A DNA stretch of 31,154 nt from Candidatus Thorarchaeota archaeon (lineage in GTDB: Archaea; Asgardarchaeota; Thorarchaeia; Thorarchaeales; Thorarchaeaceae), in contig JBHLRS010000003.1 in assembly GCA_048882325.1 (NCBI GenBank), forward strand, positions 146,379 through 177,532. The letters run 5' to 3'. Position 1 is the stretch's first letter. Each line of letters begins with the position of its first letter. The notes beneath the pieces were generated by a model. The model did not search any database and had not been told where the DNA came from. It saw only the letters and a program-made list of their open reading frames with translations. The position numbers and the translations under genes were made by a program. This document shows, in pieces, positions 1,802-10,455 of this stretch.

Positions 1802-3319
1802 CTAGAGGATACCTAAGAGTCCTGCGACTCCTTCGCCACCCATACCTGCAAGCTGTTCCTTTGCTATCTGCTCATAGTACTGTTTGATGATTGACACCAT
1901 GAGCAAGATACCTGTCCCACTCGCAAGCGCTCCCAGGATATCTGCCGTCGCAGCTAGAATTCCTATGAGGAACCCTCCAAGTCCAGCTACAACAGGGATG
2001 TAACGCTCAAGTAGTCTCTCAAGAACTTTCTCACTTGTTCGGAAACCTGGAATGATATATCCTGAGTTTAACAGTTGTCTAGATACATCCCTCGGAGCAA
2101 TACCTGAGATATCGACCCATATTTTGCTGAAGCCCCAACAGAGCAGAATCATGAGGGACACATAGATGAAGATATGGACCCACCCCTCCATCCCCTCCTC
2201 TATGAGGCGGAACACACCCTGGGGCGGAGTAATATACTTCGCCAGACCTTTAGTAGCCACCATACGCCCACTATCGTCTCGTTCAAAGGCACCTAACCAG
2301 TTCAAGAACGGGTTGTCACCATCAGGATTGAATGCTCCTGCAATTATTTGGCCGAAGAAGAGAATGTTGGCATAGAGTGCCTGAGCAAGAATAACTGGGA
2401 TGTTTGAAGTATAGAGCAGCTTGATTGGGTATCTTGCTTTCATTCCACGATACTTTGCATACTGAAGTGGAATTTCCACTCTAACAGACTCTAGCCAAAT
2501 GACCGCGAAGAAGATGATGAACGTGACAGAGAGTGACATTAGACTTGGATCAAAGCCATTCCTGACTAAGAACCAACTGATAGGTACTGGATCACCCTGA
2601 GTGCGTCCAATGCCAAACCATCTCAGAAGATTGCTGATTAGTGCGGCAATGATTCCTTTCGGTAGGTTTGTCGGAATCTCATTTGCAGCTCCACCCATAT
2701 AACCTTCTGGTGACGCCACCTCTGCATCAAGGACATTCAGTGAGGCGAACATCACTTGTCCTGCGACATTGGTCATGATGAAGAGCGATACTCCGGATCC
2801 AAGACCCCATCCTTTCTGAACTAGCTCGTCCATCAGAATGACGATGATTCCAGACATGAATAGCTGGAGGAAAACCATCACAGACTCTGTTGGAGTTAGC
2901 TCGCCATATGCCTGACCAAGTATGTATGCGATTGCTTGAAACGCAGTCATGAACAGGGCTATGACTTTCTGACCACCAGTGAACAGAGCTCTGTCCTCAG
3001 GATCACCGAAGTCTACATCGATGATCTTAGAGCCTGAAAGTAGTTGCATGACCAGTCCTGCAGTTACTATAGGACCAATTCCAAGCTCCATCAAGGTACC
3101 ACGTGTGCTAGCAAGTATAACACGCATTGCCCACAGATAGTCCGTTCCTACCCCTTTGTCCACACCATAAAGTGGCATGTGTGACATGATAAGGAATATT
3201 ATGAGAATTAACGCTGTCCAGACGAATTTCTCCCTAAAACTGACTTCACGGTCTGGAGTCTTTACTTCAGGCATTATCCTAACAAATGGGGACAATGCCT
3301 TGAGGAACCGACTAGTCAT
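1802..3319 (-). CDS. secY: Preprotein translocase subunit SecY (Sec61alpha)
   Basis: GTLMELGIGPIVTAGLVMQLL, YPIKLLYTSNIPVIL, IPGFR and GTGILL motifs; about 10 hydrophobic segments; end of spc cluster. Confidence 0.98.
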   Translation of the reverse strand: MTSRFLKALSPFVRIMPEVKTPDREVSFREKFVWTALILIIFLIMSHMPLYGVDKGVGTDYLWAMRVILASTRGTLMELGIGPIVTAGLVMQLLSGSKIIDVDFGDPEDRALFTGGQKVIALFMTAFQAIAYILGQAYGELTPTESVMVFLQLFMSGIIVILMDELVQKGWGLGSGVSLFIMTNVAGQVMFASLNVLDAEVASPEGYMGGAANEIPTNLPKGIIAALISNLLRWFGIGRTQGDPVPISWFLVRNGFDPSLMSLSVTFIIFFAVIWLESVRVEIPLQYAKYRGMKARYPIKLLYTSNIPVILAQALYANILFFGQIIAGAFNPDGDNPFLNWLGAFERDDSGRMVATKGLAKYITPPQGVFRLIEEGMEGWVHIFIYVSLMILLCWGFSKIWVDISGIAPRDVSRQLLNSGYIIPGFRTSEKVLERLLERYIPVVAGLGGFLIGILAATADILGALASGTGILLMVSIIKQYYEQIAKEQLAGMGGEGVAGLLGIL

Positions 3320-3376
3320 TCTCTTTGCTTCCTGCAGTTCGTTTCGGGTTCCAGATGACTTGTGCTTTAAAAGCTA
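3242..3376 (-). repeat. Copy 1 of a diverged direct repeat: secY upstream region plus first 26 codons (attached to intact secY)
   Basis: Aligns with 6093-6228 at an offset of ~2851 bp. Exact 26-bp core tttacttcaggcattatcctaacaaa at 3261-3286. Confidence 0.92.
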
Positions 3377-3769
3377 TCGAACCATGATATATAGAATCAA
3401 AGAATTTGTCATATAGCAATCTAGAGGGAACCTAAAGATCGTCTTCCTACCCGCAGTTAGGGACAATTGTTTGCGATTATATCCCTCTTCTTGAAACTCC
3501 CAGCTTTCTGACTTGAAGAGTTCCTTGTAACCTTGAGGAATGAACACCCTGTCCTATTCATTTTTAATCTTGAAATAGTCTTGAGGTTGATAGACCACAT
3601 TGTCACTCGCTGAGAGGTCAATGACATAACGAGAGGGTAGACTTTCTCTGGCTAGAAACCGGCCCTCGAATGGCATGAGGATTGATTTGTATGTGTGAGC
3701 TAGTAGGTTGCTACAGACATGCTGCGGGACACATTTGCCAGAACCCTTTGGATGAGATTCACTCCAACC
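3374..3769 (-). pseudogene. Possible degraded gene fragment of unknown family inside the island
   Basis: One frame reads ...YKSILMPFEGRFLARESLPSRYVIDLSASDNVVYQPQDYFKIKNE*DRVFIPQGYKELFKSESWEFQEEGYNRK... with a single internal TAG (3554-3556) and no good start. Confidence 0.35.
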
Positions 3770-3837
3770 TCAGCAATGTTTCTCTTGTACTCCTTTTCAG
3801 CCTTCTAACCTCGATGGAACGTTTAGAGTGAAATAGA

Positions 3838-3858
3838 GGAGAGGGACAAGCCCTCTCC
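3838..3858 (-). terminator. Terminator-like hairpin downstream of island ORF 3875-4360
   Basis: Perfect 8-bp inverted repeat GGAGAGGG-N5-CCCTCTCC followed by TCTATTT on the minus strand, 16 nt after the stop. Confidence 0.6.
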
Positions 3859-3874
3859 GAGGCTACATTGAAGA

Positions 3875-4360
3875 TCAGACAGTAATCGTAATCCAGTTTG
3901 TAACGCCGCCTCCCGGCAGCCCGCCACTGAACGCACTATCCCTGAGCTGATCCCCAGTCTGTGCAGATATGCCAGGATACCTCACAAGGTGTGAAATCCA
4001 ATACCTGCCAGAGTACCATAGTTCTTGGTAATTCCTTAGAATAAACATCTCGGCCATAGAGTAGCAAGAAATCCACGGGTATCCCGGGTTCTGCGCCTTA
4101 AAAGTGTGCTCAACTTTGTACCACTCTACACTTATTAGTCGTAGCCTCCCGCCGATAAATGAATACTTGTATCGAATAGTGGCCTCAGTGTGCAACCAGT
4201 AGGTAACAGGGTCCTCGCCACCTTCATAGATATAGCCATCAGCAGTATAGACTGCATCTTCAATTATGTATGCTGCAACTGGTCTAGGTATAAGAAAGAG
4301 TCCTAATACCATAATGCACAGGGTGGCTAAAACCACTCTTTTTTTATTGAATTGCTTCAT
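3875..4360 (-). CDS. Hypothetical secreted protein (Sec signal peptide), 161 aa
   Basis: ATG at 4360 preceded by GGAGGAG. N-terminus MKQFNKKRVVLATLCIMVLGLFLIPRPVAA has basic n-region, hydrophobic h-region and small-residue cleavage site. Mature part is Tyr/Trp-rich. Confidence 0.75.
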   Translation of the reverse strand: MKQFNKKRVVLATLCIMVLGLFLIPRPVAAYIIEDAVYTADGYIYEGGEDPVTYWLHTEATIRYKYSFIGGRLRLISVEWYKVEHTFKAQNPGYPWISCYSMAEMFILRNYQELWYSGRYWISHLVRYPGISAQTGDQLRDSAFSGGLPGGGVTNWITITV

Positions 4361-4737
4361 ATTATACTCCTCCTTCCAAGAGTTTACATCCTCAACAGCA
4401 GACAAATGGCTGCTGTATGCTTCTTTATACTGAATTTACATATAAGACGGACCTCGTTTCTAAACAAGTAAGAATTGCTCTTTCTTGCAACATCCTGAAT
4501 GTCTAGAGTGGATATATAGCCCAATCTTGAAAAATCGCATAATACCCAAATATTACCTAAACATTTGGCCAACATCCCCTCTTTCCTCAAATGTGTAGTC
4601 TTTGTAGAAATAATATCTAAACCTTTTTTTCGTCTGCCAAAGCATGTTTCGAGGAGCTTAAATCTCGCTTATTATGACTGTAAGATTAGCATAACAGTCA
4701 ATATTTGAACTGAGTGACAATCAGCGCATAGAGAGGT

Positions 4738-5073
4738 TTGAGGACGGGAGTCAAGGGTTACCCTCGTGAGGACTGGGAGCTTGGCATCAAGACCATGCAG
4801 TTCTGTGACCAGTTCAACATCACAGCCACCTTCCTCAGACGATTCTGGAATGTGCCAACTGACCATCAGTTCACACAGATGGCAAGGTCCAAGGCCATCA
4901 TTCACGGGTCAGTCGGTATTCCTAATCCACCCGAGCACGTTTCGATTATTCTGGATGTTCTTGAGAGGTATGAGGAGCTTAAAGGATGGTCTGTTCGAAG
5001 AGTAATCACGATCCCACTTCGTGTTAAAGCACACTATCAGAAAGAGCACTCGCAAAACTCACGACCAATCTGA
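4738..5073 (+). pseudogene. Protein-like ORF or fragment of unknown family inside the island
   Basis: 111 codons with weak TTG start; GC-richer than its neighbours; no recognised motif. Confidence 0.35.
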
Positions 5074-5241
5074 TTATACAATCTTATTCTCTCGCCTTTC
5101 CCTGCTTCTAAATCGATCCAATGCTAGCGCCTGCACCCTTGTATGAGGTCCACCTATTACTAATCTACACAGTTTCAACTTCAGGGTTCTGAAAGTCCCA
5201 GTAGCTTCTCTATTTGACACCCTCATTAATGGGAATAGTGT

Positions 5242-5868
5242 TTATGGGCCTAAATAACCCCAGCCTATATACGTGACTAGAAAGGTAGCTGGATCGAATA
5301 TACTGTTCTGAGACCGAATATGGGATTTATACCGAAGCTCTACATAGAGTTTTACAGCAAAGAGATAGGTATGTCCCCCACTGACTCTATAGTTTATCAC
5401 GTACATATCCTCATCATAGAAGTTCTTTGTTACATCCTCGGTACCAGTCGTAATCCAATCAGAGTAGACTAGTTTCTGTGCGATCAGATGCTCACTTGTA
5501 CTAAATAAAGCCACAAAAACTAGAACTACGGCCTTATCTCCCAAGAATTCCCAAAATGCACCAAATTCATATTTCAACTGGCCATCAAAGCCAATCTTCA
5601 CTTTATAGTTATCAGCGTAACTAGGGACCGTCCTCTCCTCACCAACGCAAAGCCATGCATAATTGATTCCGATTAATGAATCGCCTTTTATCTCCATCAG
5701 TCCTAATACCTTATCAGCTTCTGTCACACTAAAGACTGTAGGATACATATTATGTTCAAAATCCCAATCAAATGGACGGTATCCTGCGTAAACAGGTTGT
5801 ACAGAGAGGAGCCCAAGAATGGTAACAACAAAGACCATTAAAAGTACATTCCTCTTCTTTCGCTTCAC
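5242..5868 (-). CDS. Hypothetical secreted protein (Sec signal peptide), 208 aa
   Basis: GTG start with GGAGG upstream. MKRKKRNVLLMVFVVTILGLLSVQPVYA signal peptide, then aromatic, beta-strand-like mature region. Confidence 0.78.
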   Translation of the reverse strand: MKRKKRNVLLMVFVVTILGLLSVQPVYAGYRPFDWDFEHNMYPTVFSVTEADKVLGLMEIKGDSLIGINYAWLCVGEERTVPSYADNYKVKIGFDGQLKYEFGAFWEFLGDKAVVLVFVALFSTSEHLIAQKLVYSDWITTGTEDVTKNFYDEDMYVINYRVSGGHTYLFAVKLYVELRYKSHIRSQNSIFDPATFLVTYIGWGYLGP

Positions 5869-6053
5869 CTTATGACCTCCGCATCACGATTACATGAATA
5901 ATTCATGCCAATACAACAGTATGTTTCTAAGTTGTTATTATCCTTTACTGTTTTTTGTTCAAATCAATAATTTGAAGATGAAACCGATGATGATGATGCA
6001 ATCTTGCTTGCGAAAAAAGAAAGCGAACTGGATTGCTCAGACTAACCTCTTGT

Positions 6054-6075
6054 AAGGAGAGATAATCTTCTCCTT
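6054..6075. terminator. Hairpin just after the truncated secY copy
   Basis: AAGGAGA-N8-TCTCCTT followed by a T-run on the plus strand. Confidence 0.4.
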
Positions 6076-6080
6076 TTTCT

Positions 6081-6170
6081 TCAGTAATAGATAACCTCTC
6101 TGTCGGGTGTTTTTACTTCAGGCATTATCCTAACAAAGGGGGATAATGCTTTGAGGAACCTAATGGTCAT
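6081..6170 (-). pseudogene. secY: Truncated second copy of the secY 5' end; 29-aa micro-ORF MTIRFLKALSPFVRIMPEVKTPDREVIYY*
   Basis: 25 of the first 26 residues are identical to SecY (MTSRFLKALSPFVRIMPEVKTPDREV). Starts 77 nt after the uL15 stop, the canonical secY position. Too short for the ORF track. Confidence 0.92.
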
Positions 6171-6228
6171 TTACATATGCCTTCTGCAGGGATTTTTGTG
6201 GTCCAACTTGAGAATACCATTAAGGCTA
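6093..6228 (-). repeat. Copy 2 of the secY 5' direct repeat
   Basis: Exact 26-bp core at 6112-6137; upstream CTGCAG and TTAA..GCTA elements at nearly the same spacing as in copy 1. Confidence 0.92.
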
Positions 6229-6246
6229 GTGGTTCTCTCTGACAGA

Positions 6247-6696
6247 TTATTCCGCTGGTAGGTCGATGGTGCCTCCAGCACCAGTGACCTTCTCTCTAGC
6301 TCTTGGAGTAATAGCTTTCACACCGACGAGGTTCAGTTTCCGTGTCACCTTTCCAGAACCAAGGATTCTATCGATTCCGAGTTTGGACACATCGATACTG
6401 TATTTCTTGCCAGTCATGGTCGCTACACCTTGAGCAACAAGTCTGTCTGCAGCCTCATCGATGTCTCCAATATTGATGGCCACGAGGTTGTCAATTACCT
6501 TCTGGGGTCTCTTGAATCCCCATTTTCCAAAGTATCTGGGGTCTTCCTGCATCACTTTGATGTAATGATGTTTCTTCGACCCGGCCATTCCCTTACCGCC
6601 TTTCTGCCCAGAGGCTCGATGACCTGCGCTGAACCCATACCCGGCCGCTCGACGTCCTCTCATTTTGTTAATCTTCTTTGATGGTCGTTTCTGCAT
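6247..6696 (-). CDS. rpl15: 50S ribosomal protein uL15
   Basis: KMRG...HRASGQKGGKGMAG, YFGKWGF, ILGSG motifs; ATG at 6696 (alternative GTG at 6705). Confidence 0.96.
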   Translation of the reverse strand: MQKRPSKKINKMRGRRAAGYGFSAGHRASGQKGGKGMAGSKKHHYIKVMQEDPRYFGKWGFKRPQKVIDNLVAINIGDIDEAADRLVAQGVATMTGKKYSIDVSKLGIDRILGSGKVTRKLNLVGVKAITPRAREKVTGAGGTIDLPAE

Positions 6697-6711
6697 TTCT
6701 ATCACTCCACT

Positions 6712-7245
6712 CTATGCTTTCTTGAGCCGCACTTCTAGCACACCATTACGAATCGCAGATTTCGCATCTTCCTTTTGTACTTTGGAAGGAAGGTCAATGA
6801 CCTTGTGATATGGCCTGTCCGGGTTGTCTGCGTGTATAGTCAGGGTCGTACCTTTGATTCGGACCTTGATCTCATCTCTCTCCACGCCTGGCACCTCTGC
6901 CACAACGATGATTTCATCATCATCTTCAACGACATCTACCAGAGGTTCTAGACTTGGAGTTACCTCAACACCTCCATCCATTGGAGGATTTCCGAAACGC
7001 TGGATGATTGGTTTACCGTCTGGACCAATCTTCATTGAGAAACCAAATACAAAGGGGTTTGTCCCTTCCGGATTTCTGAGCATCTCTTCAAATGCCTCAC
7101 TGTTAAACAGTGTACCTTCGTTCATCTCGCTCATCATCCTTTCCATCATCTCTTCGATTTGACGGAACATCTCCTCAGGTAGGAAATCGCCAAACCAGCG
7201 CCGGAGTTTTTTCCGGGTTTCATCATCTCGGTCGTCCCACGACAT
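6712..7245 (-). CDS. hsp20: Small heat-shock protein Hsp20 (archaeal type)
   Basis: PFVFGFSMKIGPDGKPIIQRFGN, EPLVDV, VVAEVPGV and NGVLEVRLKK alpha-crystallin motifs. Confidence 0.93.
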   Translation of the reverse strand: MSWDDRDDETRKKLRRWFGDFLPEEMFRQIEEMMERMMSEMNEGTLFNSEAFEEMLRNPEGTNPFVFGFSMKIGPDGKPIIQRFGNPPMDGGVEVTPSLEPLVDVVEDDDEIIVVAEVPGVERDEIKVRIKGTTLTIHADNPDRPYHKVIDLPSKVQKEDAKSAIRNGVLEVRLKKA

Positions 7246-9630: not shown

Positions 9631-10455
9631 TTAGTCCACCTCCAAGTCAAGATCCGTGAAGAGGTCTGCTTCATCTATTTCCTCACCCTTACCAGGATTG
9701 AGTACTCTCAGGAGTTTCGCATCTGCTGCAGCTATAATCTCTTGTCGCTTCCTGAAACCAACAGTAGAGGCGATACGGACAGCATGAATGTCTGGATCCA
9801 GTTCTTCAAGTTCAGAAGCTCTGTGAACTCTGACCTCTACGTACAGTGAAGGATGGAGGTCTCTGACTGCTTTCGGTGTGCGATAACCTGAGGAAACCAT
9901 TGCAATACGTCCTTTTCGCTTCTCACGAATTGGACTGTCTATTCCTCTGACTTTTCGCCAGGAATCACTTACCCTGGTCCATCTATGTGTCTGTTCATGA
10001 CGAAACTTTGGCATGCGCTTCTTTTTCTGTTGGGCAATCTTCAGAAGTCTCTGGTCTGTATTTTTCACCCTTAGTGGGACTTCGACCTTCGGCTTCTTCT
10101 TGGGCTTAGCTTTCTTTGGCTTCTTCTTTGGCTCTGCTTTCTTCTTCTTGGGCTTAGCTTTCTTTGGTGCTTCTTTCTTAGGAGCAGCCTTCTTCTCAGC
10201 TTTTGGTTTAGCCTTCTTTTTTGGTTTCTCTGTTGATTTCTTCTTAGGCGCTTCTTTATCCTTAGGAAGTAGCTTTGAAGCTTCGAAAATGAAACTCTCT
10301 GCACTGGTTTCTCCAACACCCTCGACTTTTTCTGAGAGCTTCTTTGGATCCATCTTCGATAAACTGAGGACTGTCTTTATTCCAGCCTCACGGAGTTTCT
10401 CCTCCATTGCTGGTCCAATTCCTGGGACATCGCTCAGTTTTGGTTTCTTCGACAT
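9631..10455 (-). CDS. rpl32e: 50S ribosomal protein eL32 fused to an N-terminal helix-hairpin-helix domain by a Lys-rich linker
   Basis: C-terminal PKFRH..W, WRKVRGIDS, GYRTPKAVRDLHPS; N-terminal LSDVPGIGP and VEGVG HhH motifs. Confidence 0.93.
   Translation of the reverse strand: MSKKPKLSDVPGIGPAMEEKLREAGIKTVLSLSKMDPKKLSEKVEGVGETSAESFIFEASKLLPKDKEAPKKKSTEKPKKKAKPKAEKKAAPKKEAPKKAKPKKKKAEPKKKPKKAKPKKKPKVEVPLRVKNTDQRLLKIAQQKKKRMPKFRHEQTHRWTRVSDSWRKVRGIDSPIREKRKGRIAMVSSGYRTPKAVRDLHPSLYVEVRVHRASELEELDPDIHAVRIASTVGFRKRQEIIAAADAKLLRVLNPGKGEEIDEADLFTDLDLEVD
10093..10167. repeat. Exact 27-nt direct repeat (10093-10119 and 10141-10167) encoding PKKAKPKKK in the eL32 linker
   Basis: cttcttcttgggcttagctttctttgg occurs twice with a 48-nt period. 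Confidence 0.9.

Follow-up and report, generated by a model that had tools for sequence, protein, structure and literature searches.

How does an essential gene come to have its promoter and its start twice, with unrelated DNA in between? The question is raised by secY in a stretch of 31,154 nt from a Candidatus Thorarchaeota genome (assembly GCA_048882325.1, contig JBHLRS010000003.1, positions 146,379 to 177,532 of the forward strand). This whole stretch is called the window, and all plain coordinates refer to it. The source genome (G000) is a metagenome bin of 3.6 Mb in 89 contigs, which is 93% complete and has an estimated contamination of 4.3%. The minus strand of the window carries an archaeal ribosomal protein operon (... 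L19e, L18, S5, L30, an Hsp20-like gene and uL15). In this direction, uL15 is followed by a 76-nt spacer, a secY stub, a 2711-nt cargo block, a second promoter-like block and the intact secY. An earlier note, made from the sequence of the window, had taken the DNA between the two secY starts for an integrated element flanked by attachment sites (attL/attR). The ancestry of the two copies points elsewhere. With moderate confidence, we attribute the arrangement to one-sided homologous recombination combined with illegitimate recombination, which would have imported the cargo, a promoter and a secY 5' end from another Thorarchaeote.

Two copies of the secY promoter and 5' end

The direct repeat lies at 3243-3320 and 6094-6171 (spacing 2851 bp). 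The repeated segment comprises the secY promoter and the first 26 codons, i.e. positions -62 to +78 relative to the start, or ~140 nt. In the coding part, 13 of 78 nt differ between the copies. Twelve of these differences are synonymous and one is non-synonymous (Ile3 versus Ser3); the aligned 26 residues are identical apart from residue 3. Upstream of the start, 37 of 62 positions match (z 2.9 against shuffles), and the similarity ends at about -62. No similarity between the copies was found beyond -63 or beyond +79, and the true junctions have no short core in common. The alignment confirms what the earlier note had described, namely two copies of the secY upstream region and 26 codons about 2851 bp apart with 12 of 13 differences synonymous.

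The first copy follows uL15 (6247-6705, minus strand; Pfam Ribosomal_L27A), the last ribosomal protein gene of the operon, whose orthologues adjoin secY in relatives. The native uL15-secY spacer (6171-6246, minus strand) holds a relic secY promoter with a TATA-like box at 6217-6226; its best match is the locus L148. The relic secY start (6081-6170, minus strand) consists of 26 secY codons (6170-6093) followed by Ile-Tyr-Tyr-stop. With its ATG at 6170-6168, the relic open reading frame (ORF) at 6170-6081 has 29 codons plus stop, which is a small correction to the earlier note. The truncated copy does occupy the native slot, as had been proposed: it starts 76 nt past the uL15 stop, and the spacing in relatives is 70-90 nt. 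The second copy comprises the working secY promoter block (3320-3381, minus strand), apparently of foreign type, with a TATA-like box at 3365-3374 and a conserved CTGCAGGA motif, and heads the intact secY (1802-3319, minus strand; 505 aa; Pfam SecY and Plug), a gene of apparently mosaic ancestry.

If the stub had evolved neutrally since a local duplication, ~60% of the differences would be expected to be non-synonymous; only 1 of 13 was (P = 1e-4 to 4e-4). In a tree of positions -62 to +120, the copies did not fall together, and forced sisterhood was rejected (p-AU 0.017). Because of the synonymous bias and the rejected sisterhood, the two copies appear to derive from two functional alleles and not from local duplication and neutral decay. 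The earlier note had drawn the same conclusion from the synonymous bias, and it is borne out by both tests.

Which of the two alleles is native was judged by comparison with relatives. G000 has no close one, the nearest genomes being ~80% identical in the operon. The stub is 89% identical to L148 over all 140 nt, and the uL15 of L148 is also the closest. Moreover, the stub and L148 have a common motif before the ATG that is seen nowhere else. In the best tree of the 5' segment, the stub falls, with weak support, together with the 11 sampled members of a 12-member clade that holds the secY body; on the secY body, this clade has 99% support. In a calibration with 153 pairs of relatives, the stub had the identity to each relative that would be expected from the gene body (mean z -0.1). 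By contrast with the stub, the segment now heading secY was too divergent from the body's clade (z -2 to -3.4) and fitted only lineages outside it (G003, G011, G013 and L156). The promoter of the intact copy was closest to the promoters of G011 and G013, with specific features in common. These comparisons indicate that the stub is the native secY start, and that the first 78 nt or more of the intact secY are of a foreign type, with a body of native type from ~+150.

In an alignment with 14 relatives, 74 columns are invariant among these. The stub deviates at 8 of the 74 (two in the TATA box, one in a GGAG-like motif and codon 3 among them), and the intact copy at only one, a synonymous site. 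Therefore, the stub is decaying and the intact copy is constrained. This agrees with the earlier claim that the island supplies the secY promoter: the copy heading secY retains every conserved promoter element, and the copy by uL15 is losing them.

A 26-nt stretch covering secY codons 12-20 is identical in both copies (3261-3286 and 6112-6137, minus strand) and had been proposed as the core of attL and attR. Recombination within a core would turn both copies into hybrids. Past the 26-mer, the stub differs from L148 at 4 of 24 positions and the intact copy at 9 of 24; upstream of the 26-mer, the promoter included, it is likewise the stub that has native-like sequence. Just beyond the repeat, codons 27 and 29 are AGT and AGG in the intact secY, versus TCG and CGT in native-like relatives, and are thus of the non-native type. 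Since neither copy is a hybrid, the stub being native-like and the intact copy foreign-like on both sides, the 26-bp core was not the crossover point. The identical 26-mer is found in the single-copy secY of G003, and near-identical ones across two genera. The core is ordinary conserved secY coding sequence. With no ancestry switch at the 26-mer, the same 26-mer in G003 and no common core at the true junctions, the attL/attR proposal does not hold.

As a separate observation, nucleotide conservation of secY codons 12-20 across two genera extends to the third positions, and these codons include a small dyad (AGG..N6..CCT). There may be a constraint on the 5' end of the mRNA beyond the protein sequence.

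The gap between uL15 and secY in other Thorarchaeota

The earlier note had pointed to the uL15-secY interval of related genomes as the place to look for empty sites, different cargo and larger versions with a recombinase. Empty sites were found: a spacing of 70-90 nt was measured at 21 of the 72 Thorarchaeota loci with uL15 and secY on one contig, and in most same-genus relatives. The island is an insertion relative to this empty site. Cargo of other kinds was found as well, in the form of unrelated genes in other Thorarchaeota. The expectation of larger versions was not met, as neither a related element nor a recombinase-bearing version was present at the site in ~100 Thorarchaeota loci.

The uL15-secY distances in the 72 loci ranged from 70-90 nt to ~4 kb (roughly 145, 190-260, 400, 629, 1107, 2248, 3092, 3209, 3218 and 3994 nt). 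The larger gaps hold unrelated genes, e.g. for a 1000-aa beta-helix/NosD protein, a GNAT acetyltransferase, a beta-propeller-like protein and a 378-aa ORF without a family match. The cargo was always located upstream of the conserved promoter block, and no recombinase was present in the cargo of the expanded gaps examined. Throughout the family, the DNA between uL15 and the conserved secY promoter is a hot spot for insertions, a landing site for unrelated, recombinase-free cargo.

Examples of such cargo are L076:2800-5772, L078:2800-5832, L100:2007-6000, L101:2909-6000 and L112:5332-5742, which include a beta-helix/NosD surface protein, a PQQ-like protein, unknown proteins and a GNAT acetyltransferase. 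Flanking relics were not seen at these five gaps.

The secY promoter block itself is conserved throughout the family, with a TATA-like GCTTTAAAGG ~50 nt before the start, followed by CCTGCAGGAG. As secY has this dedicated promoter in all relatives, its independence from the operon was not created by the island. The suggestion that the island uncouples secY from operon read-through thus describes nothing new.

Two 26-mer cores were found in G000 only, among 87 genomes of the class and 19 metagenome loci. The 19 metagenome loci, which matched the secY-core pattern, were all single-copy. A regex search of 47 expanded gaps gave no further relic promoters or cores, and a metagenome scan with a promoter-type pattern gave no match.

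An older analogue was present at the same locus in the sister species G024 (L043:5837-8145) and G015 (L044:4958-5660). Here a full uL15 is followed by a decayed relic of the secY promoter and codons, 0.5-2.2 kb of inserted DNA and a second copy that heads the intact secY. The downstream copy begins with the last 34 nt of uL15 and runs via the promoter into the intact secY. The G024 insert includes a 378-aa ORF without a Pfam match, whose N-terminus looks nuclease-like by eye.

Routes to the present arrangement

In the reading that we prefer, the incoming segment would have come from another Thorarchaeota lineage and would have consisted of accessory DNA, then the donor's secY promoter and at least the first 78 nt of its secY gene. 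Its secY end would have paired with the resident secY, with a homologous crossover between +78 and ~+160. Its other end would have been joined illegitimately at resident position +78/79. The outcome would be the order uL15, native promoter and 26 codons (the stub), cargo, foreign promoter and start, and native secY body. Transcription and translation of secY would now begin at the imported copy, with the native one in decay. No element-encoded recombinase would be needed, as host recombination would suffice. The donor plausibly had the cargo already in the permissive gap between uL15 and the secY promoter. We infer this direction of import, a linear-DNA mechanism and this layout of the donor.

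On an evenly balanced judgement, the process would be homology-facilitated illegitimate recombination, acting as a 5'-end 'displacement'. Two marks of this process are seen at the locus: the added DNA is contiguous with a homologous stretch of different ancestry (with moderate support), and the joint at +78/79 lacks homology and lies within ~100 nt of the putative crossover.

Several points weigh against this reading. The informative segment is only 140-200 nt long, which leaves the support for its ancestry moderate. A placement of the intact 5' end inside the native clade was not formally rejected (p-AU 0.12, short segments), and the mosaic test gave a noisy signal with a second choice of comparison groups. 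The right-hand crossover is only roughly located. A donor with the cargo upstream of secY was not found in the collections searched. The older downstream copy in G024 and G015, with its uL15 3' fragment, fits a compact donor and later filling better than co-import of the cargo. Finally, we know of no demonstration of homology-facilitated illegitimate recombination in archaea.

The process has been documented in Acinetobacter, Streptococcus pneumoniae, Pseudomonas stutzeri and Escherichia coli conjugation (PMC3240628; PMC5361080). As at secY, one end is integrated via a homologous anchor and the other is joined nearby without homology, and no element-encoded enzyme takes part (PMC3240628; PMC5361080). 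Unlike the bacterial cases, the present one is deduced from sequence only and concerns an Asgard archaeon. Here, the 5' end of an essential gene serves as the anchor, and a start codon and a promoter predicted to work come with the import. Homology-facilitated illegitimate recombination is also the proposed mechanism of the displacement arrays of type VI secretion systems (T6SS) and Rhs (PMC5361080). In Rhs/contact-dependent inhibition (CDI) and T6SS effector-immunity arrays, a module with a conserved arm displaces a gene end, and an orphaned fragment of the other allele stays alongside, much as here (PMC5361080). Those arrays concern variable 3' toxin ends under diversifying selection, whereas at the present locus the 5' end of a housekeeping gene was displaced with no change of the protein. 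For this reason, it looks as if the secY part was carried along when cargo was gained, and was not itself the selected change.

Our best interpretation of the locus is a recombination scar at a permissive site, left by a 5'-end version of a displacement process that is already known; an interpretation as a mobile element is not supported, and the locus is not evidence for a new class of such elements. To our knowledge, displacement events of this kind have not been described in the Asgard phylum, and we are aware of almost nothing on DNA exchange in this uncultured lineage. The value of the locus lies in the clean, contig-supported footprint that recombination between species has left in it. 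This footprint suggests that host recombination alone can place accessory genes beside an essential gene.

The alternative put forward by the earlier note is the remnant of a site-specific integrative element at the secY 5' end, which brought a replacement promoter and start and whose recombinase was lost or acts in trans. We consider this rather unlikely. The arrangement matches an integration with restoration of the target, relatives have empty sites and the copies come from different alleles; in addition, the family of a gene fragment in the cargo is found elsewhere in runs of small ORFs without annotation, possibly mobile DNA. Against this stand the absence of an ancestry switch at the only identical stretch, itself ordinary conserved coding sequence, the true junctions without a common core, and the absence of a recombinase.

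The island is integrase-free, as had been stated: its three ORFs have no Pfam, NCBIfam or PHROG match, and no recombinase, transposase, casposase or virus/plasmid gene was found among them. Mobilisation in trans finds no support. Neither PF00589 (tyrosine recombinase; so no XerA-like gene) nor PF00239 (serine recombinase) had a match anywhere in the 93%-complete G000 assembly, and control genomes scored. Such a lack is unusual for an archaeon and may be due to missing contigs or divergence. Moreover, neither a second copy nor a related element was found, and viral contigs had no match to the secY core. Excision or empty-site joints were not seen in public contigs, which cannot show rare variants.

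The locus is like archaeal target-restoring integrated elements in that the insertion is at a gene end, direct repeats of the target flank it and relatives have an empty site. However, the known archaeal att repeats are short and identical (median 17 bp in Thaumarchaeota, 29-69 bp in Crenarchaeota) and are located mostly in tRNA genes or gene 3' ends, besides intergenic sites, with the integrase encoded (PMC6563490). The repeat at secY is 140 nt long and diverged, with no integrase and no crossover signature. A practical lesson is that copies of a gene fragment on either side of an island, even copies that have diverged like alleles, do not by themselves indicate att sites; the point at which ancestry switches must be checked.

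A transposon or casposon with target-site duplication was also considered and rejected. No transposase or casposase and no terminal inverted repeats were found at the island, and the repeat spans 140 nt with a coding part that is 17% diverged with a synonymous bias.

A Campbell-type insertion is unlikely. Circular DNA (a plasmid, virus or excised circle) with a secY promoter/5' homology arm would have entered by one host-made homologous crossover. Native-like sequence extends to the final base of the stub, and foreign-like sequence in the intact copy extends through +78 and apparently as far as +87. The crossover would therefore need to have fallen at the extreme end of the arm or past it, unless a deletion followed later. 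The cargo, for its part, is without replicon or virus genes. What speaks for this history is that a single crossover gives the exact order seen, i.e. the native copy truncated at the end of the arm, the cargo and the arm-derived copy heading the gene. G024 and G015 have the same topology, with a downstream copy that starts inside uL15 and an upstream copy that ends inside secY.

No more probable than this is the mirror image of our preferred reading, in which the native parts are the cargo, the intact secY and the promoter of this secY, and the stub is the tail of an L148-like fragment that was integrated by homology in the ribosomal operon and joined illegitimately to the cargo. This is mechanistically equally simple, places the cargo where other Thorarchaeota have theirs (upstream of the promoter block) and accommodates the unusual closeness of the stub to L148. 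It conflicts with the calibration, in which the 5' segment of the intact gene was less like the body's relatives than expected and the stub fitted. Furthermore, no tract of raised identity to L148 extends into uL15 or further upstream, and no breakpoint was found in the upstream operon.

More doubtful still is a general scheme in which Thorarchaeota have integrase-free cassettes with a portable secY promoter and 5' end for a homology arm; these cassettes would enter the uL15-secY gap via host recombination and be retained by promoter capture, with G000 as a young case and G024/G015 as an old one. If this were true, promoter-capture cassettes would be hard to lose: once displaced, the native promoter decays, and a repeat-to-repeat deletion would place the essential secY under the control of a crippled promoter.

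A local tandem duplication of -62 to +78, followed by insertion of the cargo at the duplication joint and divergence in place, is highly improbable. Its topology would be like that of a long target duplication, and G024/G015 have a similar layout, but it is contradicted by the 12 of 13 synonymous differences (P about 1e-4), by the copies not being sisters (p-AU 0.017) and by the stub, whose identity to other species (up to 89%) exceeds its identity to the intact copy.

The earlier note had made its claim subject to a confirmation of the assembly. Five public runs from two studies contain the stretch. Logan contigs from four runs of two studies cover both junctions at uniform depth with one to two single-nucleotide polymorphisms. 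Separately assembled contigs of the second study span 2600-4629 and 4610-6900, and one contig spans everything. The assembly is thus corroborated, with independent contigs from two studies bridging both junctions and no sign of a chimera. An assembly chimera of two strains is hardly credible: the genome is a metagenome bin with some contamination, yet both junctions are bridged at even depth, and a k-mer chimera is unlikely because the joints are not at the shared 26-mer.

Cargo genes and neighbouring features

The cargo block (3382-6092) comprises 2711 nt of non-homologous DNA with a G+C content of 0.38-0.46, which is slightly low. It has no second copy in its own genome and was not found in 27 genomes of the genus, save for a fragment of a 315-aa protein family. 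In a tblastx comparison with ~100 Thorarchaeota secY loci, it had no match. No tRNA, Rfam or PHROG matches were found in the block. An origin of the cargo by tandem duplication of downstream DNA was rejected, there being no second copy in the genome.

The larger of its two protein-coding ORFs (5242-5868, minus strand) encodes a 208-aa orphan with a predicted N-terminal signal/anchor helix and a beta-rich body. Among 5.8 billion proteins, it matched only itself. The smaller (3875-4360, minus strand) encodes a 161-aa protein of a very small family, with a predicted signal peptide and a beta-rich body. Among 1.84 billion representatives, it had three homologues of similar length (41-43% identity) and two weak partial matches; the genomic surroundings of two homologues gave no clue. 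The AlphaFold models of the two proteins are of low confidence (pLDDT 44 and 48), and look-alikes in the Atlas give a loose pointer to small secreted beta-sandwich proteins. Between the two ORFs lies a pseudogene remnant (4738-5022, plus strand), an internal fragment corresponding to residues 129-223 of a 315-aa protein family found in Thorarchaeota only. A full copy of this protein is not present in the G000 genome. Taken together, the cargo would consist of two orphan secreted proteins, as predicted, and an internal gene fragment, and looks like a patchwork of accessory DNA and not like a recognisable element.

Members of the 315-aa family (L139:8001-8948, L138:8001-8948 and L040:1228-2175) have a Cys-rich motif near residues 85-95. 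They sit among long runs of small ORFs without any family, and these surroundings are possibly uncharacterised mobile or viral DNA.

A hairpin at 6054-6075 lies directly past the relic ORF. Its terminator-like score is on the plus strand only, i.e. against the direction of the operon. The Hsp20/alpha-crystallin-like gene (6712-7245, minus strand) lies between uL30 and uL15 and is found in the same place in same-genus relatives with 74-76% identity. Hsp20 is also named in a figure legend on Asgard ribosomal clusters (PMC10833476). The L32e gene (9631-10455, minus strand) encodes an N-terminal helix-hairpin-helix domain (HHH_5), which results in a 274-aa fusion protein.

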